Origin: Escherichia phage vB_EcoM_ESCO45
DNA: 64,000 nt
Sequence record: OM386661.1
Strand: one strand, 5' to 3'
Shown: positions 19,860-56,400 of the stretch, one piece after another
How the letters are laid out: each line of letters opens with the position of its first letter
Numbering within the stretch: the first letter of the stretch is position 1
Notes under the pieces: model-generated
The model's database searches: none
The model's input: the letters and a program-made list of their open reading frames with translations, nothing else
What the model was told of the DNA's origin: nothing
Program-made: the position numbers and the translations under genes

Positions 19860-22540
19860 GTCTTACCTACCTTACCAGTGCCTGTAACAAGCGTCTTACT
19901 CTTTAATCCAAGATTTTTTGATGCTTGACCATACATTCTATCAATAATCTCCTTAACATCTGGTACATCTTTTGTTGGAACCTCTAAAGAAACTTCGTCG
20001 TGGTAACTACAGACCCATCTAGCACCAATAGCTGGTTTCCTACCATTTAGGACTGTAAGTTTTCGCTCTGTTAACTCTCTGTTAGCCAAGTTAATACCCT
20101 CATTCTGCACCTGCGCCTCACTGCCCATAAGTGTGTAATTCAATAACTTATGTGGAGATTTACACCATAACCACGCTCCAGCAACTTTGATATAACCACC
20201 TTTGGCAATTGCAGAAGTTTTTCCAAAAACCTCTTCAAGTGCTTTCTTAGTTGCTTTGAAGTCCTCCTCTAGTCTATCGAGCAGCTTTTTAATCTTAGGT
20301 AGACGCACAAAGTAAGTTTGTTTAGTCAATGCACCTTCTTCCGTAGATGATGCCTTGATAGTTTTCGCGAACTTCTCATCTCCGGCTCCAAATAACAGGG
20401 CGTAGATGCCATTTTTGCTCTTCTTACGGCCTTTTGTAATCTCGTGAAGAAGTTCCTCATCCTGTGTCTCCCTACAACGAACAATATCTTCTTCTTTGTT
20501 CAGACCAAAGTAAATACTGTTCAGTGTATGTGCATCAGTCCCTGTGTAGACTTCATAGAGGTCATTTTCAGCATCATAACGCAGATACTTGTCAGTTTCT
20601 GGGTTAAGATACTTGTCAAGATGCTTACAGTAGTATCTACCATCATCTTGCTTAGTGAACTCTACTGACTCTTTACCCTCAGTTACCGCTTTAGTGAAGT
20701 CTTCATCACCCATAAAGTTACAAAGAAGAACTAGCTGGGCTGAGTTTTGGTCTACGGAGATGATATCTGTACCATCTTCACAAGTCCACACCTCCCTCAT
20801 AGGTGCTCCATAAACAGCAGCACCAGACGGTACGTTTACAATACCATATTGTGTCATACGTCCAGTTGAAGTACCAAACACCATTGCACCAGCACTAAGG
20901 CGACCATCTGGACGAATCTGGTTCAACCAACCTTTTTCATCATCCTTTGAGTTCTCAATAGTTCTGCGTCGGTGCATCAAAGTATAGTATTTAGCAATCT
21001 TCTGTCCAAGTTCACCTTCAATCGTATCATAAGATGATTCAGTAAGTTTTGGTGAAGTACGGATTAAGCAAGGCTCAAGCAAATCTGTGTATTTCTTCAC
21101 AGACCAGTTATGCTCAATGTACTGGACACCTTCATGTTCAACATAACTCAAACCACACTGCTCAACCATTTCCTGCCACTTAGGATGTTTTGTAATCATC
21201 TTTTTATTGTCTTTGAAACGACAAACTTTGACAGGGCGACCGTCTGAGTCTTTCTTGTAGTTCCAGTCATCTGGAATCCAACCAACTGATTTCAAGTAGT
21301 CTTTAACAACTGCTACCTGAGTCATACGAGAAACTTCAAACTCAATTGGTGTATACGGTGCATCAATCAAACCTGTGTAGCGACTTGACTCAAGTTCAAA
21401 GTGGTTAACAACGTGGCTGTTATAATACTTCACAGTTTTGACTGTTTTTACTGGCTTCCAGTCTTTGCACTTCTTACCAATCTTTGCATTCAACTCGTTG
21501 CAAATTGCACGAGCATCCTTCATTGCTACAAAACCTTCCTTGTACTCTTCACCAGTTACAGAGTTGGTTGGTGTATAGCAATTCCTTTTTTCAATGTTAA
21601 AAATCTTTGTAGTTGGCTTACCAAATGGTTTGATTTCGTATGTCTGCACCTCACCATTACGTACCTGCTGACGATACTTTGTCTTAGGGTACTTGGTAAT
21701 TCTTTTCAGTCCATCTGCATGACCAAATGTTTCAACATACTCATTCCAAGCTTTTGCAAACTCTTCTCCAGTGACTTTACCTTTGGTCTTAATAGTTGGA
21801 GGAAGATGTGGTTCAACTTCTGAAGCAAGCTCATTAGTCAACTTGTCAAGTTCCTTTACATGGAACTCCATAAGCTCTTTATCAGCTTTCCAGCCATTGA
21901 TAGCTTGTTGACTCATCCAGAAAGATGTTTCTTTAGCTCGCATGTAGGTTTCATAAGTGTCTATGCCACACTTCTTAAGCTTGAGATACTCGTTATCAAG
22001 TGCCCGTTTAGTTTTGGCGTTAATACGGATATCATCTACAACACGAGTGAAGATTTCTGCATTCCACACACCCCAATGCTCAATCTCTGGCTTACGAACA
22101 CCAACACGAGCACCCCATGCAGCCAAACCATGAGCACCTTTATAACCCTTTGGAGTTGGCCTATCCATCCACTGAACACGAGACTGGATAAGAGAATCCT
22201 GAAAGAAATTACTCCACGGCTTACATTTTGGATTATCAAAGTTCCATAAATCAGGTGCAATGTGATTGAAAACCCACCAGTCATAACCGAGACCATTATG
22301 GATGCAAAGACGTTTCGCCTTTAACGCAAACTCAACACCTTCACGTAAACCACCTTTAAGGTACTTAGTGTACTTGTGACCGAGGATAGGCTCATCTGTA
22401 AAGACCCATACAGGTGGCTCTTCATCGTCAGATTTATAGTCTGCGAAAGCCATTACGTGCACTTTAGTGAACTCAAGGAGCAAACCATCAGTTTCTGTAT
22501 CGCCAACTAAATGTAAGTTTTTAAAATCTACGTTTTCCAT
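19841..22540 (-). CDS. DNA polymerase, family A, with 3'-5' exonuclease domain
   Basis: Exo I motif VGDTETDG near N-terminus; C-terminal motif C YHDE and ...GKTWYAVH terminus; start set at Met11 (22540) which has RBS GAGGGAG; longest ORF starts 22570. Confidence 0.85.
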   Translation of the reverse strand: MENVDFKNLHLVGDTETDGLLLEFTKVHVMAFADYKSDDEEPPVWVFTDEPILGHKYTKYLKGGLREGVEFALKAKRLCIHNGLGYDWWVFNHIAPDLWNFDNPKCKPWSNFFQDSLIQSRVQWMDRPTPKGYKGAHGLAAWGARVGVRKPEIEHWGVWNAEIFTRVVDDIRINAKTKRALDNEYLKLKKCGIDTYETYMRAKETSFWMSQQAINGWKADKELMEFHVKELDKLTNELASEVEPHLPPTIKTKGKVTGEEFAKAWNEYVETFGHADGLKRITKYPKTKYRQQVRNGEVQTYEIKPFGKPTTKIFNIEKRNCYTPTNSVTGEEYKEGFVAMKDARAICNELNAKIGKKCKDWKPVKTVKTVKYYNSHVVNHFELESSRYTGLIDAPYTPIEFEVSRMTQVAVVKDYLKSVGWIPDDWNYKKDSDGRPVKVCRFKDNKKMITKHPKWQEMVEQCGLSYVEHEGVQYIEHNWSVKKYTDLLEPCLIRTSPKLTESSYDTIEGELGQKIAKYYTLMHRRRTIENSKDDEKGWLNQIRPDGRLSAGAMVFGTSTGRMTQYGIVNVPSGAAVYGAPMREVWTCEDGTDIISVDQNSAQLVLLCNFMGDEDFTKAVTEGKESVEFTKQDDGRYYCKHLDKYLNPETDKYLRYDAENDLYEVYTGTDAHTLNSIYFGLNKEEDIVRCRETQDEELLHEITKGRKKSKNGIYALLFGAGDEKFAKTIKASSTEEGALTKQTYFVRLPKIKKLLDRLEEDFKATKKALEEVFGKTSAIAKGGYIKVAGAWLWCKSPHKLLNYTLMGSEAQVQNEGINLANRELTERKLTVLNGRKPAIGARWVCSYHDEVSLEVPTKDVPDVKEIIDRMYGQASKNLGLKSKTLVTGTGKVGKTWYAVH

Positions 22541-37931: not shown

Positions 37932-38417
37932 ATGAATTACATGGATATTAGACCATTTGATACAGCTAATGGTGAAGGGGTTCGTGTAAGCCTCTTCGTA
38001 GCTGGTTGTAAGCATCACTGCGAAGGCTGCTTTAACAGGGAGTCTTGGAAGTTTAATGCTGGTAAAGAGTTTACTTATGCAAACCTCTACGGAATCATCC
38101 AACTAATGGGTGATAATGCTGTCAGTGGTTTGTCAATACTTGGTGGAGAACCTCTGGATGATAGAAATGTTCAAGAGGTTACCAATATATGTAAACGTAT
38201 TAAAACTATTTATCCAGAGAAGTCTATATGGCTTTGGACAGGTTTTCAACTACACGAAAAAATTCACCTTGATGTGATGAAATACATTGACGTGGTGATT
38301 GATGGCAAGTATGATTTATCTAAACCAACAACTAAACCATATCGTGGTTCTGATAACCAAATTCTCTGGAGAAAAGAGTATGGATGGCAAGGTGATTGTC
38401 AGTGGAGAGCAGAGTAA
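37932..38417 (+). CDS. nrdG: anaerobic RNR activating enzyme (radical SAM)
   Basis: 161 aa; CKHHCEGC (Cx3Cx2C) radical-SAM cluster motif. Confidence 0.8.
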   Translation: MNYMDIRPFDTANGEGVRVSLFVAGCKHHCEGCFNRESWKFNAGKEFTYANLYGIIQLMGDNAVSGLSILGGEPLDDRNVQEVTNICKRIKTIYPEKSIWLWTGFQLHEKIHLDVMKYIDVVIDGKYDLSKPTTKPYRGSDNQILWRKEYGWQGDCQWRAE

Positions 38418-38540
38418 ATCTCGTTGTAAAGTAGGTTATCGGTAAAGACCACTTTACAATGTTCTACAGAACAAACTTAACCATTGGTCTCACTGAAGGA
38501 GAACTTAAAACATTTGTGAAAAGATTGAGAGAGATATGAA

Positions 38541-38798
38541 ATGGGACTCTGGAATAGTTTTAAATCAAAAGTAAAAGCAGCACTAGCTTCATTAGGTATG
38601 CTCACTGGTGTTGATGTGACTCATCTTATGCAGAACTTTAAGATGGAGGAGAAGCTGGCTAATGAGGTTATGAAAAGTATCTATGTAGGCCGTGATAAAG
38701 GTGGTAAGAAACAAGCCCACCGTCCGTCTGGTGCAGCAGCTATTAAACGAGCAGCTAAGAAAGCTCGTAACCATAAACGTAATAAGAAGGCTAAATAA
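38541..38798 (+). CDS. hypothetical protein with highly basic C-terminus
   Basis: 85 aa; C-terminal KRAAKKARNHKRNKKAK. Confidence 0.3.
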   Translation: MGLWNSFKSKVKAALASLGMLTGVDVTHLMQNFKMEEKLANEVMKSIYVGRDKGGKKQAHRPSGAAAIKRAAKKARNHKRNKKAK

Positions 38799-38800
38799 TC

Positions 38801-39121
38801 ATGGGCAAAGTTTATAACACTCGCAAATTACAGATTTTCGTACTGTGTCAGTTTATGGCTAAAGAATACAATTTCTACTATTGTGGCACAGGTTTTATTA
38901 GCGATGATGATGGCTCATACCTCCCATTCAAAGAAGCTGTAAAGCTCTTTAATGAAGAGGAAAGCTCTAAGAAAGATATTGAAAAGGTTAAGCTAACCTA
39001 TAGCAAGAAAGATAAGAAGATTATCTGCCTAGATAACTTTGTAAAAGTTACTGGAGAAGCAAAAGAGTTTATGGATGAGAGTGAGATTTCATTCACAAGC
39101 ATCTTGAAAGTGGCTCAGTAA
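38801..39121 (+). CDS. hypothetical protein
   Basis: 106 aa ORF. Confidence 0.3.
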   Translation: MGKVYNTRKLQIFVLCQFMAKEYNFYYCGTGFISDDDGSYLPFKEAVKLFNEEESSKKDIEKVKLTYSKKDKKIICLDNFVKVTGEAKEFMDESEISFTSILKVAQ

Positions 39122-39165
39122 ACAGATAGTGGTGTTAAGAAATCTGCCGTTGGTGGTGTACACCT

Positions 39166-39333
39166 ATGTGGGATGGTGATAAGCTGAAAGCTGTAGATGG
39201 CTATGGACTCCAGAGTTTTGCAGATGTACTTGACCACCCAGCTTGTGCTTTACGTTTAGTCTTTAGTGACTCTGAGCAGTTTGGTTACACAACTCTTGGC
39301 GATATTCGAAACAATATTGACAAGCAGCTTTAA
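39166..39333 (+). CDS. possible small protein (55 aa)
   Basis: Short ORF ending 14 nt before terminator 39347-39370; weak RBS; below ORF-track cutoff. Confidence 0.25.
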   Translation: MWDGDKLKAVDGYGLQSFADVLDHPACALRLVFSDSEQFGYTTLGDIRNNIDKQL

Positions 39334-45312: not shown

Positions 45313-46197
45313 ATGAAACCAATGTTTAAGTATCTTGGTGGTAAAACAAGAATACTGAAAGAATATGAGCGTTTAGGTGTCTTTCCAGACAACTGTGAAA
45401 ACTTCTATGACCTGTTTTCAGGTGGTGGCTCAGTAGCTATCTGGGCTTATGATAAGTACCCAGAGGCAAAAATATTTATTAATGAAATAAACAAACATAT
45501 CATAGAACTTTACATAACCTTCAGGGATGATTACGACAAATTCATGGAAGAATTTCGACACTTGGCAAAAAGGTACTTAGCATTACCTATGCAGGAAGAG
45601 TACACTATGAAGGGGCAACGCCATAACCGATTACGTTATAAGATGTACTACAGTGTAAGAGATGAGCTTCTCACTCTTGGTGAATCTGGTGTCTATGACT
45701 ACAGATACTATGCCAGACAGTTTTTCCTTCAGAAACTAAGTTTTGGTGGTGTATGGCAGACAACTAAAGAGATGAAAGGGCACTATGCAACACCTTGCGG
45801 CTATTTGATGGAAGAAGAAGTTTTCTTTACAAAGACTGAAGAAGCACTAAAGGAGTTCTATAACTTCATCACTGATGAGAGGGTTGTCCTTAGCAGTAAT
45901 TCTTATGATATGGTTGATATAAAGCATGGAGAAGGGACAGTCATTTACTGTGACCCACCATATATAAACACCAACCAGAAATATGGCGCAAAGTTTGACG
46001 TTTCAATGTCTGTGAAATTGTGCAAAGACATATCTGATTGGGGGGAGTTAGGCTCTAAGGTGCTGATGTCAAACTCTCAGTGGGACGGATGGTCAAACCT
46101 AATTCCTGAAAATTTTCACTTGACAGAGGTTAATCATTCATACACAATACACGCACAGGGAAGCAAAGGTATTAACGAAGTAATTATCCACAACTAA
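45313..46197 (+). CDS. dam: DNA N6-adenine methyltransferase (Dam-like)
   Basis: KYLGGK motif near N-terminus, FSGGGSV SAM-binding loop, catalytic DPPY; start at ATG 45313 with RBS AAGGAG (track start 45307 is GTG). Confidence 0.75.
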   Translation: MKPMFKYLGGKTRILKEYERLGVFPDNCENFYDLFSGGGSVAIWAYDKYPEAKIFINEINKHIIELYITFRDDYDKFMEEFRHLAKRYLALPMQEEYTMKGQRHNRLRYKMYYSVRDELLTLGESGVYDYRYYARQFFLQKLSFGGVWQTTKEMKGHYATPCGYLMEEEVFFTKTEEALKEFYNFITDERVVLSSNSYDMVDIKHGEGTVIYCDPPYINTNQKYGAKFDVSMSVKLCKDISDWGELGSKVLMSNSQWDGWSNLIPENFHLTEVNHSYTIHAQGSKGINEVIIHN

Positions 46198-50647: not shown

Positions 50648-51160
50648 ATGAAAACTATAGACGCAACCTTTGAAGTTGTAAAAGAAAAATTTTCAATCAT
50701 TTATGAAGCTGTTACTTGGTATGAACCAAGTCATGCCCTTGAAAATTGGGAGTTTACAGATGACCATCAAGGCGGTGTGACTATTAAAAATCCTAACTAT
50801 CGAGGCAATGAATTTAAATATGCAATCCCTTTACATTACAGCTTGAAACAGCTTTCAAGTGACTATGCAAAACAAGGCCGGGAAAATCCATCCCGTGAGG
50901 CTTACATGAGCTTACAGGAAGAGCTAAAAAGGGATTTAGAGGCTTCAGATTATTACCTATCTGCAAAAGTTGTAGACGCAAACGGGAAAACGGTTTTAGA
51001 TAGTTTTTCTATTGGTTACGCTTTCGATTGGAGCTATAGCGACGGCGTTGATTTAGAAGATAGACTAAAAGAGGAGGTGAGCAATTCAGGCGCAGAATCT
51101 GAAGTTATGGAACAACTAGAAGCCTTAAAAGATTCAGTGATGAATATCTTTAAAAATTAA
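50648..51160 (+). CDS. hypothetical small protein
   Basis: 170 aa; preceded by family-A cassette. Confidence 0.45.
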   Translation: MKTIDATFEVVKEKFSIIYEAVTWYEPSHALENWEFTDDHQGGVTIKNPNYRGNEFKYAIPLHYSLKQLSSDYAKQGRENPSREAYMSLQEELKRDLEASDYYLSAKVVDANGKTVLDSFSIGYAFDWSYSDGVDLEDRLKEEVSNSGAESEVMEQLEALKDSVMNIFKN

Positions 51161-51176
51161 ATTAAGAGGAAACACC

Positions 51177-51509
51177 ATGTTAATGATGGGAATCACTGCA
51201 ATCATCGCCATTATAGCACTTTATAAGGCTTACAGCGCCTATAATTTAGCAGATAAGGCAATTACACAACAGGTTAATAATAGCCTTGTAGAAAGCTTTC
51301 TGGAGCGTTTAAGCGATGAGCAAATAAAGAGGCTAGAGATGAGTTTCAGATTTAAAGCGAAAACTTATCAGATTAGTGACATTTTCAAAGATGACTATCA
51401 ACTGATTGATGATTATAACTCTCTACTAAATGCTTTGAATATCAGTGACTTAAAAGACTACTACGCTGTAATTGCTCAAGAAATGAGCAAACGAAAAAAT
51501 TTCTCTTGA
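51177..51509 (+). CDS. hypothetical membrane-anchored protein
   Basis: 110 aa; N-terminal TM MLMMGITAIIAIIALY. Confidence 0.4.
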   Translation: MLMMGITAIIAIIALYKAYSAYNLADKAITQQVNNSLVESFLERLSDEQIKRLEMSFRFKAKTYQISDIFKDDYQLIDDYNSLLNALNISDLKDYYAVIAQEMSKRKNFS

Positions 51510-51598
51510 ATTTGGTTTTTAAAACAAGTAAATTACTAATCAACGGGGAGGGCATGACCTCCCCACTAAATAAAACCCTTAAACTAGGAGATTCAAAA
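51510..51598 (+). promoter_or_regulatory. repeated promoter/stem-loop/RBS cassette, family B copy 1
   Basis: TTGAAT-N17-TAAATT then CAACGGGGAGGGCATGACCTCCCCACTAAATAAAACCCTTAAACTAGGAGATTCAAAAATG; hairpin GGGGAGG/CCTCCCC. Confidence 0.55.
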
Positions 51599-51871
51599 AT
51601 GTATACTACTAACAACGGGCGAACCCTAAATGTAACCCTACGCCACTATGTGAACGGCATAATGCACTTTGAGGATTTACAAGCGGAACAACATATTCTG
51701 GATTGGCAAGTAGCAGGACTGCAAAAAACTACTACCGGATATGGGAAAAAGATACCAACGAGCTGGAAAGTACACTATAAAGGACGTTTGCGCAGAATTT
51801 ATCAGGATGTATATAGCAATAGCGCATCAAGTTACATCATGGTGAAAGGTAAAAAGCTGCATTTAGTGTAA
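51599..51871 (+). CDS. hypothetical small protein
   Basis: Start moved to ATG 51599 after family-B cassette RBS; track ORF 51506 begins with TTG inside the repeat. Confidence 0.4.
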   Translation: MYTTNNGRTLNVTLRHYVNGIMHFEDLQAEQHILDWQVAGLQKTTTGYGKKIPTSWKVHYKGRLRRIYQDVYSNSASSYIMVKGKKLHLV

Positions 51872-51957
51872 AGTGCTTTACAAGGTGCTTACAGTTCGAT
51901 AAAGTAAGCACCAGATAAAGAGCTTTATCAAATAACCCTAAACTGGAGAACTTAAAA
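51871..51957 (+). promoter_or_regulatory. family A cassette copy 3
   Basis: Same module, CTTACAGTTCG variant. Confidence 0.55.
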
Positions 51958-52362
51958 ATGGCTATTAATAACCGTGAGTTATTAATCTTAAAAGCACGTT
52001 TGACCATTAATCGAATTAATGTGATGACATCAGCAGCACCAGATGAAACCTTATATAATATTATTGGGAAGATTCAAAGTGCTATCTTAGACGTTGAAAG
52101 CGTAAAAACCTCACTGATTGACGTTGCAGCGGGTATCACGCTAGACGGCGCACAATATGAAATGGCTGACATGTTGGGCAAATCTAAGGTAATGAATAAA
52201 GAACTTGATTTAAAAATATTCAGATTCGCCGTGAAAGTATGGTTATCCATCGAGTATGATGCCAATTATGCAATCGCTGATTTTTTCGCCACTTGGTTAC
52301 AACGTAATTTAACAAGTCATGTTTTTCGTGATGTATGTGATGCAATTTATGCAGAACTATAA
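51958..52362 (+). CDS. hypothetical small protein
   Basis: 134 aa; preceded by family-A cassette. Confidence 0.45.
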   Translation: MAINNRELLILKARLTINRINVMTSAAPDETLYNIIGKIQSAILDVESVKTSLIDVAAGITLDGAQYEMADMLGKSKVMNKELDLKIFRFAVKVWLSIEYDANYAIADFFATWLQRNLTSHVFRDVCDAIYAEL

Positions 52363-52368
52363 AAAAAT

Positions 52369-52464
52369 TTGTTGACACCGGTTTTTAAAACAAGTAAATT
52401 ACTAATCAACGGGGAGGGCATGACCTCCCCACTAAATAAAACCCTTAAACTAGGAGATTCAAAA
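52369..52464 (+). promoter_or_regulatory. family B cassette copy 2
   Basis: TTGACA-N17-TAAATT + GGGGAGGGCATGACCTCCCC hairpin + RBS. Confidence 0.55.
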
Positions 52465-52662
52465 ATGGCTATTATTAACGGTTTAAACATTGAGACTACT
52501 CACATCAAAGACATTAAAGCCGGTGATATAGTCCTTTCCCACGGCGTAGAAAAAACCGTCACCGAAAAAGATATCAAGGAGGATTCATTCATGGGTCGGA
52601 CCCTCTTTGGTGATTCCTATTGCTTAGGCTATCTTGCTGTTTTAAAAGTTGTAAAAAAATAA
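52465..52662 (+). CDS. hypothetical small protein
   Basis: 65 aa from ATG 52465 after family-B cassette; track start 52369 is TTG inside the repeat. Confidence 0.35.
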   Translation: MAIINGLNIETTHIKDIKAGDIVLSHGVEKTVTEKDIKEDSFMGRTLFGDSYCLGYLAVLKVVKK

Positions 52663-52667
52663 CTGAT

Positions 52668-52756
52668 AAAGTGCTTTACAAGGTGCTTATAGTTCGATAA
52701 AGTAAGCACCAGATAAAGAGCTTTATCACTCAATCCTTAAACTAGGAGATTCAAAA
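52668..52756 (+). promoter_or_regulatory. family A cassette copy 4
   Basis: Same module as copy 1. Confidence 0.55.
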
Positions 52757-53299
52757 ATGAAATGCTTTCACGGTACTACTCAAGAAAATTTTATCAACCT
52801 GATTAATAACGGCGATAAGCCATCAGGTGCATGGAATTGCTCGGACATGGACGGCAATTTTTACGTGTATCCAGAAAATAAAATCTATGGCGACGATGAG
52901 CAAGAAATAATATCTGAAGGTATCCATCAGGCGTTAGGCAATGCCGCTATAACCGCAGCTTTCCAGATGAAAACCCAAAATCTTGTTATCTTGGAACTCG
53001 ATATTCCAGAAGATGACCTAAATGATGATTATTCTTGCGATAATATGTCTGGCGCAGCAAGTTTTACAGAGTATTTTGATATAAGCTGGATTAAAAAAGT
53101 TTACATCACTGAATTTAATGCTATGTTTTCACCTTTTTGTCTTCCTTCACTGGATAACCCGAATTTAAACTATATTGAGGAGCCTCTTGAACTTCTCGCT
53201 AAAAGTATTCAGCAGGCGGACAGTATTCAGGTTTTTTGTGACATCATGGACACACTGACAGAAAACATTGTAGAAAGAGATTTAAAGAGCTTTTTCTAG
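52757..53299 (+). CDS. hypothetical acidic protein
   Basis: 180 aa; preceded by family-A cassette. Confidence 0.45.
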   Translation: MKCFHGTTQENFINLINNGDKPSGAWNCSDMDGNFYVYPENKIYGDDEQEIISEGIHQALGNAAITAAFQMKTQNLVILELDIPEDDLNDDYSCDNMSGAASFTEYFDISWIKKVYITEFNAMFSPFCLPSLDNPNLNYIEEPLELLAKSIQQADSIQVFCDIMDTLTENIVERDLKSFF

Positions 53300-53467
53300 A
53301 AACCTATACAATCACCTTATAAACACTATTTAGCACCTTGTAGGTGCTTCTAGAGTGCTTTAATTATGCTTACAACCGTTTACCTCATCCTTTCCACCTG
53401 TAATGGGGGGGGTATTTATGTGACTTTAAGATAAAATCATCATTAAAAAAGACTAGACAAGCCAGAT

Positions 53468-53548
53468 AAAAATCTGTAAATTATCAATCAACGGGGAGGG
53501 TATAACCTCCCCACTAAATAAAACCCTTAAACTAGGAGATTCAAAAAA
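53468..53548 (+). promoter_or_regulatory. family B cassette copy 3
   Basis: TAGACA-N17-TAAATT + GGGGAGGGTATAACCTCCCC hairpin + RBS. Confidence 0.5.
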
Positions 53549-53890
53549 ATGGCTTATGTAACCGTAGTTACCGATAAAGAGGATTCATCTTGGTCAACTC
53601 AAGTAAGTGACAAGATGACACCTATGCAGTGCCTAAAATACTTTGAGCAATGGAATAAAGGCGAGGATGTAAGTCCCTTCCAAGTAATGCAAATTATACA
53701 TGTGGACAATGAAGGCAATAAAACGGTTTTAAATAGTGAGTACTATGCAAACCGATTTGAAACGAGATGTAAAACGATGAAGCTTCTACGTGAATCCGGC
53801 TATTCTCATATCGCCGCGTTAATTTGGGATGACTTGCTAAAAAGTCAACGTATCAGCTACGTAAAACCTGAAAAAATATTTATAAGCTAA
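53549..53890 (+). CDS. hypothetical small protein
   Basis: 113 aa; preceded by family-B cassette. Confidence 0.45.
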   Translation: MAYVTVVTDKEDSSWSTQVSDKMTPMQCLKYFEQWNKGEDVSPFQVMQIIHVDNEGNKTVLNSEYYANRFETRCKTMKLLRESGYSHIAALIWDDLLKSQRISYVKPEKIFIS

Positions 53891-53923
53891 TCAATAACTT
53901 ACAAAAAACTTTCAAAAAAGTAT

Positions 53924-53952
53924 TGACAACGCCCCTTGACATTGATAATGTT
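53924..53952 (+). promoter_or_regulatory. sigma70-like promoter
   Basis: TTGACA-N17-TAATGT; second TTGACA 7 nt downstream. Confidence 0.4.
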
Positions 53953-54019
53953 GTTCGAGGGGGTTTATCTAAAAGGGATTAACTTAAAAGATTTCTTTAT
54001 AGATAAACTTAAAAAATTA

Positions 54020-54111
54020 CTTGCAATCAGATATCAAACCAAGTAAATTACTAACCAACGGGAGGGATGACCTCCCCACTACATAAAACCCTTAAACTAG
54101 GAGATTCAAAA
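54020..54111 (+). promoter_or_regulatory. family B cassette copy 4
   Basis: TTGCAA-N17-TAAATT + GGGAGGGATGACCTCCCC hairpin + RBS. Confidence 0.5.
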
Positions 54112-54642
54112 ATGAATAAATTCAAAGCTATCAATTATATTCGTTCAAATGCTGTAATGTCTAAACCTGTCAAAGATACATATGAATTTCGCTGCAATGG
54201 TGTACATTTTGCAACTATCACTAAATCAGGAAAAGGTGCTTATTATGTCCATCGTCGTAATGTTGCAACCGTTGTAGTCTCTCATTTCATGCAAGCTGTC
54301 GCAAAATTATTACCGTTATTCTTAGGGATTTACTTAGATGAGTGCAAAAACGTTCGCAACCACGTTAAAAACCTTCTAAACGGTTATAAAATGGCTTACG
54401 AACGTTCAATCAAGTCATTGAACAAATTTTATAAAGCACCTGTAAATACTGTTTCAATGGCTTACAATGTAAATGGTGAGCTGGTTAGTCTCTTTGAAGT
54501 GGAAGAAATTGAACTATATAACTCACGCCCTAAAGGTTACTCTAAAACATTGGGAGAGGGTTTATCTTTCAATATCAAGAATTTAGAAAAAACTTTAAAA
54601 GATATTGAAAAGGATATCGATGAGATAATCAAAAATCTGTAA
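54112..54642 (+). CDS. hypothetical protein
   Basis: 176 aa from ATG 54112 after family-B cassette (track start 54067 lies in the stem-loop). Confidence 0.45.
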   Translation: MNKFKAINYIRSNAVMSKPVKDTYEFRCNGVHFATITKSGKGAYYVHRRNVATVVVSHFMQAVAKLLPLFLGIYLDECKNVRNHVKNLLNGYKMAYERSIKSLNKFYKAPVNTVSMAYNVNGELVSLFEVEEIELYNSRPKGYSKTLGEGLSFNIKNLEKTLKDIEKDIDEIIKNL

Positions 54643-54695
54643 ATTGTCAATCAACGGGGAGGGTATGACCTCCCCACTAAATAAAACCCTATTGA
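54633..54695 (+). promoter_or_regulatory. orphan family B stem-loop copy (no downstream gene)
   Basis: TAAATTGTCAATCAACGGGGAGGGTATGACCTCCCCACTAAATAAAACCCT without following RBS/ATG. Confidence 0.5.
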
Positions 54696-56400
54696 TTCGA
54701 TAGAGTCTATCCCATAGGTGCTTTTTTACGTCTATCAAATCCTTATGCAATCCCTTTCCCTCACCTTTCTAGAATCTCCCCACTGATTCAATAGAGTTTA
54801 TCTCATACCTTAAAAAGCAATAACTCTATAGCTTACCCTATAGCCTTTTATCAAATCAACTTAAATATAAGCCCATAACCCGAGAGGGAAGGGCAACCCT
54901 TTAAACGCCCTATAACGCCCTATAACAGCATTATCAATATAACTTAAGGGATTGCATTACCTCACCTTAAAAAGCACTTTATAAGGCTTTACAGAGCCTT
55001 AAAAGAATCTTTTAAGGGTATAAGCTTATAGGCTGACTAGTATCATGTGAACTGCTAAAAAGTGCTTGATAGTGTCTTAAAAGTATGTTATAGGTGCTAT
55101 AAAGTTACTCAAAAGCTACTCAAAAGTTACTCAAAAGTTACGTAAATGCTAGCCCCCTTAACATTTTCTTAACAATTTCTTAACAAATCCTACATAGTTA
55201 TACTTTCAAGACACTTGTTAACAACTTGTTAGACCCTTGTTAAATCTCTGTTAAGACCACGTAAAAGCTATGTAAAAGCCTTTGGCATAGCCTTAAAAGC
55301 ACTGTAAAGCACTATAAAGAGCTATTCATACATTTGAGGGGCAAATACTAGGGAGAGACTAAAAAGAGCCTATACAGAGCTATAGAGAGCTTTTAAAAGG
55401 TATGTTTAAGGTATCACTAAGAAAGGAAAGGGAACGATAAGAAAAGAGTAGTGACCATGTTAATAGCTTGTTAAAAAGGTTAAATACTTGTTAGGAACTT
55501 GTTAATTATCTAATTGGTATTGTTACCAATCCCTAACAAAATAACCCTTTAAAATTAACTTGTTAGCTCTTGTTAATCATCTGTTAAACCTCTGTAAAGC
55601 CTATGTATCACTTGTTAGAGACTTGTTACCCTCTTGTTAAAACTATTAAGAATCTGTTAAGACCTTTGGAGAGATGTTAAGAGCTTGAGAGAGTTGTTAA
55701 GAGTTTGTTAATGATATTTTAAAATTTTGCAAAGGGGATGTTACAGAGCTGTTAAGGGCTACCAAACAGATATACATCCTAATCAGATATTTTTCAGTTC
55801 CTTCAAAGACCCTAAAAAATGACTTGACAGTCCTATTTTATAAAAAAATTAAAATTCTGAATAATTACCTATACAGTCTTTCTAAAATACAGGCATAAAC
55901 AGGCTTATAAGATACCTTGTTAGTACCGTGTTAGGCCTTGTGAGATAAGGTCTGTAAAGATATTCCTGTTAAGTTTGTTAAAACAGTCTATATAGAGGCT
56001 TAGTAGTGCCTAGTGAACACCTATAGAGAGTGTCATAGCTAACATAGAGATTAAGAGGTGTATAGGAGCTTCTAAGAGGGTATAGAGGGATGGTTAAGGT
56101 GATTGTATAGGTTATTAAGAAGGCTTGTTAGAAGAGTGTTTAGAGGGCTTGTTAGAGGGCTTGTTAGAAGGGTTATACAGAGGGGCTACTAAGACCACTA
56201 GATAGTTACTAAGATACTATATAATACTATATAACTATATAGAGAGTAAGATTAAGAAGGTTGTTAAGAAGGATAGATATTTTATTCACATATGATGGTG
56301 ACCCAGAGGTTGGGACAACCGATAAAATTTTATAAAAATTATAAATTTCGTAAATTTTACTCAATAAAAAGCCCCCAATTAAGGAGGCTCTTAAGATATT
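54643..56400. repeat. 1.75-kb ORF-free repeat-dense region (TTGTTA-core degenerate repeats and short tandem repeats)
   Basis: No ORF of 60 aa or more in any frame; many CTTGTTA(A/G), TGTTAAG copies (55200-55700); tandem CTCAAAAGYTAC x3 (~55096-55135), GGGCTTGTTAGA x3 (~56108-56160), CGCCCTATAA x2 (54907-54925), ACTATATA x3 (~56205-56235). Confidence 0.7.

Follow-up and report, generated by a model that had tools for sequence, protein, structure and literature searches.

A run of eight G's in the early region of a FelixO1-like phage genome lies within the decayed remnant of a small gene that related phages keep intact. In our judgement, at a probability of roughly 0.78, this G8 tract is a lineage-specific mutational scar inside the dead gene of an otherwise unsampled Felixounavirus lineage, which is represented by one sequence only. 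The window (the whole stretch of DNA that was analysed, 64 kb in length) comes from a FelixO1-like myophage of the genus Felixounavirus (Ounavirinae): megablast searches with the surroundings of the tract and with 24 kb around it matched about 240-266 FelixO1-like myophages of Escherichia, Salmonella, Shigella and Citrobacter, most of them Felixounavirus, with a best identity to deposited relatives of ~89-91%. The block of small plus-strand genes that holds the site is part of the transcription unit given in the FelixO1 genome paper as genes 97-131/1-23 (PMC3185647).

The history that we propose starts from an ancestor that would have carried, between the terminator of a 180-aa gene and the promoter cassette of a 113-aa gene, a 234-nt early gene encoding 77 aa and belonging to the family phrog_4640. 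Its Gly14 codon, GGG, would have gained five G's, most plausibly by replication slippage, which we infer to run faster as the tract lengthens; short AA/AAG microhomologies would have flanked the loss of a 148-nt segment; and the ribosome-binding site would have drifted, the order of these events being presumptive. With the coding constraint gone, a long slippage-prone run may have been tolerated here while the densely coding remainder of the genome avoids such runs. The features on which this history rests are collected in Table 1.

Table 1. Features at and around the G8 tract, with window coordinates
Feature	Position	Strand	Basis
Upstream intact gene, 180 aa, phrog_3303, unknown function	52757..53299	+	ORF list, PHROG match (E=4.5e-88)
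Terminator-type hairpin AGCACCT-TGT-AGGTGCT after the 180-aa gene	53332..53348	+	Alignments, fold
Pseudogene, 91-nt remnant of the 234-nt phrog_4640 gene, ATG to ancestral TAG	53366..53456	+	Alignments, translation
Wobble-rich hairpin, AUCCUUUCCA paired with UGGGGGGGGU, followed by a U-rich tail	53387..53413	+	Terminator scan
G8 tract, ancestral Gly14 codon plus five extra G's	53405-53412	+	
Junction of the 148-nt deletion	53427..53428	+	Single gap in optimal global alignment against ESCO50; multiple alignment agrees
Predicted sigma-70-like promoter: TAGACA, 17-nt spacer, TAAATT	53454..53482	+	Scan, conservation
Cassette hairpin GGGGAGG-GTATAA-CCTCCCC, expected to lie at the transcript's 5' end	53493..53512	+	Fold, copies of the pattern
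Conserved leader and Shine-Dalgarno CCTTAAACTAGGAGATTC (contains AGGAG), with A-run before ATG	53525..53548	+	Repeat count
Downstream intact gene, 113 aa, phrog_4318, unknown function	53549..53890	+	ORF list, PHROG match (E=1.8e-74)

The G-run and the gene remnant that contains it

The first-pass annotation had pointed to a G8 homopolymer in an otherwise AT-rich genome, and both parts of that description are borne out: the plus-strand sequence around the tract reads cctgtaatGGGGGGGGtatttatg, with eight G's at exactly the positions given in Table 1, and the G+C content of the window is 38.7%. When all runs were counted, the tract proved to be the sole homopolymer of at least 8 of any base in the 64 kb, the next-longest runs of G or C being one G6 (46040-46045) and one C6 (316-321). 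Runs of at least 8 would be expected 0.13 times for G on the plus strand and 0.21 times for G or C if bases were independent and identically distributed, and context models of order 1 to order 4, with the tract masked, put the expected number of such G runs at 0.03-0.10. As a chance event the tract is moderately improbable, without being strikingly so. Long runs of A and T are depleted across the window, with 4.6 A runs of at least 8 expected and none observed, and 8.8 T runs of at least 7 expected and none observed, and against this background the G8 is an outlier. The one long run in the window falls within the one stretch of it that is shown to be a gene remnant, and toleration of a run only where constraint has gone would fit the genome-wide depletion of long A and T runs.

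In relatives the site is occupied by a gene. A 234-nt coding sequence is annotated between the same two neighbours in Tribble, ESCO50, Barry and skuden, and belongs to a small early gene of Ounavirinae (phrog_4640 or VOG1510; examples are skuden_89, Tribble_005, Barry_0020 and ESCO50_00003). Its 77-aa product matches phrog_4640, a PHROG family without known function, over positions 1-77 (E=1.6e-42), and in tblastn searches a single piece covered at least 80% of the protein in 232 of the 232 phage records with any match. Among 18 relatives the variable alignment columns are distributed over codon positions 1, 2 and 3 as 15, 11 and 59, a pattern which indicates that the gene is under purifying selection in these phages.

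Sequence searches with the 77-aa protein returned zero matches in Pfam, NCBIfam and PDB. The protein (for example at 2164-2397 of relative L002) opens with a short hydrophobic stretch whose last residue is Cys (MLTTVYLILSIC) and which may loosely resemble a short signal or lipobox-like segment, with no claim that it is one; three more conserved Cys follow, and then an acidic C-terminal half. The lost protein may have been a small secreted or membrane-anchored one.

Two alignments, one built iteratively with 19 relatives (16 of them IMG/VR loci) and one a global alignment with affine gaps against the ESCO50 gene, agree on what is left of this gene in the window. Both show that the ATG (53366) and the first 13 codons are kept and are followed by five extra G's at codon 14 (Gly); the 15 nt after the run are collinear with the relatives, a single 148-nt gap then takes out roughly codons 21-70 (~49 codons), and collinearity resumes over the last 29 nt, which take in the ancestral TAG (53454-53456). 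The edges of the deletion share an AA/AAG microhomology, so that the junction can slide by 2-3 nt, and outside the two indels the flanking parts of the remnant are ~93% identical in the global alignment. An initial MAFFT alignment of four sequences had instead given two deletions (132 and 11 nt), with the G run at a deletion junction; it calls for more events and gives poorer local identity, and the five-base insertion with a single 148-nt deletion was preferred because it is the more parsimonious.

Like the phrog_4640 genes of relatives, the stretch is homologous to the gene in nucleotide sequence, over its initial ~60 nt and its final ~29 nt, and has the same neighbours, lying between the phrog_3303 and phrog_4318 genes; unlike them, it has lost 148 nt and gained five G's, and the full-length ORF of ~77 aa that a functional member would have is not found. 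Read from its sequence, the stretch is a decayed phrog_4640 gene, dead in every frame. The two intact genes are spaced by 249 nt (53300-53548), as against ~390 in relatives. The site had been called intergenic, which holds in that no intact gene is present and fails in that the stretch is no plain spacer. The remnant shows that at least one lineage can do without the phrog_4640 gene, and it carries a caution for annotation, as an apparent long spacer with an odd homopolymer can be a decayed gene that is otherwise universal in Ounavirinae.

The ancestral state of the tract can be read from codon 14. This codon is GGG (in the context AAT GGG TAT) in ESCO50, ESCO56 and ESCO49, the closest relatives here, and GGT, GGC or GGA elsewhere, so that relatives carry G2-G3 where the window has G8 and a change from G3 to G8 would be the simplest history. 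Such a jump would take a series of slippage steps or else a single insertion of an unusual kind, and intermediates of G4-G7 were seen at the site in none of the relatives. From the ATG, the frame in the window reads MLTTVYLILSTCNGGGIYVTLR and then a stop, a total of 22 codons (53366-53434), of which only the first 14 residues match the family. With G7 the reading would become ...NGGVFM followed by a stop, and with G9 a peptide of ~35 aa; no tract length restores the protein, because ~49 codons are deleted. A change from GAGGG to GAGTG has weakened the remnant's Shine-Dalgarno sequence, and no further ORFs of at least 20 codons are present between the flanking genes on either strand. Divergence of the remnant is ~7%, compared with ~9% for its flanks, with no clear excess.

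Neither the tract nor the deletion was encountered elsewhere. The exact 23-mer containing G8 is absent from viral contigs, the flanks of the tract with a variable gap gave no match in viral contigs or GTDB genomes, and a 20-mer across the deletion junction is absent from viral contigs and related sequences; its sole match, in metagenome contig L028, is an unrelated chance match in AT-rich sequence. The 19 aligned relatives have neither feature, and the site is not conserved as a tract, the gene being uninterrupted in all of the 232 tblastn-matched records. Among 190 phage records that match the stretch, the 60 listed all do so in two pieces spanning 261-268 nt, which implies that the full gene is present in those 60.

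A possible sequencing error, and G-run expansion in the genus

Because homopolymers are classic sites of error, we considered that the extra G's, the deletion or both are technical and that the true genome has a shorter run or an intact gene. That both features are absent from every other sequence in the collections searched would be expected of an artefact, and exact-protein look-ups of the two flanking genes found zero independent assemblies on record. Homopolymer errors usually amount to plus or minus 1-2 bases, and a gain of five is atypical of them; both sides of the run are collinear with relatives, unlike poly-G artefacts at read ends. The weakened Shine-Dalgarno sequence, together with a compensated change in the stem of the upstream terminator (see below), represents independent point changes that are consistent with real divergence, and the 148-nt deletion alone kills the gene at any tract length. 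Further, of the 95 skuden ORFs that have a match in the window, 84 are present at full length and in a single frame, which argues against a generally poor, frameshift-riddled assembly; the others are accounted for by the window edges or by differences in accessory genes. We regard a technical origin as unlikely.

One such accessory-gene difference from skuden is seen at ~38300-39330, where nadV (nicotinamide phosphoribosyltransferase) is reduced to its last ~58-70 codons and the block with ribose-phosphate pyrophosphokinase (prs) is absent from the window. Phage vB_EcoM_ESCO56 shares this truncation (98.2% identity over 2.1 kb), which identifies it as a natural deletion of accessory genes. To judge by such comparisons, the genome is a mosaic relative of the ESCO49, ESCO50 and ESCO56 phages and no poor assembly. 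These three phages, its nearest relatives so far known, were obtained from horse dung.

The genus offers a second long G run for comparison. The complete genome of skuden (MN850585.1) contains exactly one, a G9 (20334-20342) that lies where a small ORF close to the DNA polymerase gene has its Shine-Dalgarno region; relatives have G5 (GE_vB_7A), G4 (CL1), GGGAG (Seyj1-1) or GTGG (pinkbiff) at that site. The ORF is unannotated in skuden and annotated in CL1 and Seyj1-1. Like the tract in the window, the skuden run is a lineage-specific expansion, by 4-6 bases from G3-G5, under no strong coding constraint; unlike it, it lies at another locus and outside any gene remnant, and the skuden region was not found in the window. 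Sporadic, lineage-specific expansion of G runs in weakly constrained DNA thus seems ordinary for these phages, and the G8 tract is most probably a genuine but unremarkable scar left by slippage in a pseudogene, and matters little by itself. A bolder version, in which recurrent jumps of about +4 to +6 G's in unconstrained DNA would be a slippage signature of the replication machinery of Felixounavirus and the tract may have taken on a role as a weak back-up terminator, or as a hypermutable spacer ahead of an early promoter, we hold to be quite improbable. A literature search returned no papers on Felixounavirus in combination with homopolymers. Given reads, the site would be a convenient and presumably neutral reporter of the rates of G-run slippage in the genus.

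The tract in relation to the neighbouring promoter and terminator

The gene downstream of the tract is preceded by a cassette of promoter, hairpin and Shine-Dalgarno sequence at 53454-53548, and the earlier placement of the tract upstream of such a cassette is correct. The -35 hexamer of the predicted promoter (53454-53459) overlaps the ancestral stop of the dead gene, and the -10 hexamer is at 53477-53482; both are invariant in 18 closer relatives while the spacer varies, the distant L022 being the remaining aligned row. The hairpin of the cassette folds at -16.3 kcal/mol (z=-4.25, with 0 of 200 shuffles as good) and its pattern has four exact copies in the window against 0 expected, and the element of leader and Shine-Dalgarno sequence has six copies against 0.01 expected. 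The ATG of the cassette at 53549 is one of several with a like layout ahead of them, the others being at 51599, 52465 and 54112, where the promoters read TTGAAT, TTGACA or TTGCAA, then N17, then TAAATT. An A-rich stretch immediately precedes the -35 in four of four cassettes.

The repeated early-gene cassette as a whole consists of this A-rich stretch, the -35, a 17-nt spacer, TAAATT, ~10 nt, the hairpin (CAACGGGGAGGG-loop-CCTCCCCAC) and the leader (CCTTAAACTAGGAGATTCAAAAATG). Copies are located at 51490-51598, 52360-52464, 53440-53548 and 54000-54111, with a hairpin-only copy at 54653-54677. The hairpin may act as a 5' stabiliser, as a processing site or as an attenuator. Runs of G6-G7 or C6-C7 in relatives mostly fall within the G/C-rich arms of cassette hairpins, the cassettes differing by phage (among the examples are L009 2171-2177, L013/L014 4521-4527 and L030 16801-16807), as where GGGGAGGG has become GGGGGGG. 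The FelixO1 genome paper gives only the promoter part of the cassette, as a 39-bp direct repeat (PMC3185647).

The first-pass annotation had proposed that slippage in the tract could modulate the downstream promoter. The tract stops 41 nt ahead of the predicted -35, beyond the A-rich stretch, and occupies roughly -84 to -77 relative to the expected start, predicted at about 53489; as it lies outside both, a change in its length cannot shift the -35/-10 spacing or the A-rich stretch. Modulation of the promoter by slippage therefore has no anatomical support.

This bears on a broader reading, in which the tract would be a contingency locus whose slippage reversibly alters the downstream promoter or a set of short peptides sharing the hydrophobic N-terminus MLTTVYLILSTCNG. 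Phase-variable poly-G and poly-C tracts are known from Neisseria, Haemophilus, Campylobacter and Bordetella, and poly-G tracts also from Campylobacter phages. The known switches either toggle the reading frame of an intact ORF from within or occupy the spacer between -35 and -10 or another defined regulatory distance. The classical length for slippage of G/C runs is about 7-8 or more, and the earlier remark that a G8 is prone to slip holds in principle. A recent preprint proposes contingency loci in phages T2/T4 and in the BASEL collection; its operational definition of a putative phage contingency locus is a homopolymer of at least 6 bp (bioRxiv 10.1101/2025.10.21.683753). By length, the tract falls within that definition; every other run in the window is shorter, and skuden, where the G9 falls in a small ORF's Shine-Dalgarno region, supplies a second long G run in the genus. 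Like homopolymeric contingency loci, then, it sits in a phage genome and is long enough (at least 6) to slip; unlike them, it has a host gene that is dead in all frames, and it is outside the (predicted) promoter and unconserved. No frame restores the protein after the deletion of ~49 codons, the remnant has a weakened Shine-Dalgarno sequence, the tract stands clear of the -35 and the A-rich stretch, and its absence from all relatives implies that it is not a conserved device. A contingency locus is therefore very improbable here. Judged by its position, the tract gates no reading frame, lies outside the neighbouring promoter and has no demonstrable function; for catalogues of phage contingency loci that are based on homopolymer length, it is an example that has the length and lacks the functional attributes.

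On its other side, the remnant is preceded by the 180-aa gene, whose product is 86-92% identical to its counterpart in related loci, and by the terminator-type hairpin that follows this gene. The relatives have GCCCC..GGGGC and then TTTT at this site, and the annotations of phages Tribble and Barry give the counterpart of the hairpin as a terminator. Compared with all close relatives, the window has a compensatory pair of changes, C>A and G>T (GCACC..GGTGC), that keeps the stem, and its T-run is interrupted, from TTTT to TTCT (site 53332-53355), so that in the window the hairpin falls short of the T-run that the terminator scan demands. The stability of the stem is preserved because of the compensatory change, with a fold of -10.8 kcal/mol compared with -11.7 for the ESCO50 counterpart.

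With the TTTT tail of the upstream terminator lost, the G8 tract could have created a new one, by pairing with the pyrimidine run at 53387-53396 ahead of a U-rich tail and so backing up the degraded terminator at 53332-53348. The resulting hairpin is the only terminator-like match of the consensus scan in 52600-54300, and its -10.6 kcal/mol compares with -3.5 for the homologous ESCO50 segment without the run. Against this, its stability is that of shuffled sequence (z=+0.58, equalled or bettered by 137 of 200 shuffles) and the centroid structure is unstructured; four of the ten pairs of its stem are G-U and only four are G-C; the one terminator-like site found compares with an average of 1.4 in shuffles; and the upstream hairpin retains its stability at -10.8 kcal/mol. 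As in intrinsic terminators, a hairpin and a U-rich tail can be drawn with the tract; unlike theirs, the stem is rich in wobble pairs and no stabler than shuffles, and the conserved terminator of this position is the one at 53332-53348. We consider a new terminator highly improbable, more so than a contingency locus. A G-quadruplex was rejected on inspection, there being no additional G runs nearby.

A scan of 51000-56000 against Rfam, with E up to 1, found nothing relevant, its three weak matches lying elsewhere and far below gathering scores.

A repeat-rich gap downstream

Downstream of the cassettes, ~1.6 kb (54700-56300) is free of ORFs of at least 40 codons and dense in short direct repeats with an 11-nt spacing. 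Repeat units CTTGTTAA/CTTGTTAG occupy 55201-55269 and 55609-55655, AGTTACTCAAA occurs four times at 55092-55146, and several long inverted repeats are present in the region. It sits at a change of sign in GC skew, between blocks of plus-strand and minus-strand genes, and this architecture is iteron- or origin-like. The homologous gap in skuden carries a repeat_region annotation.
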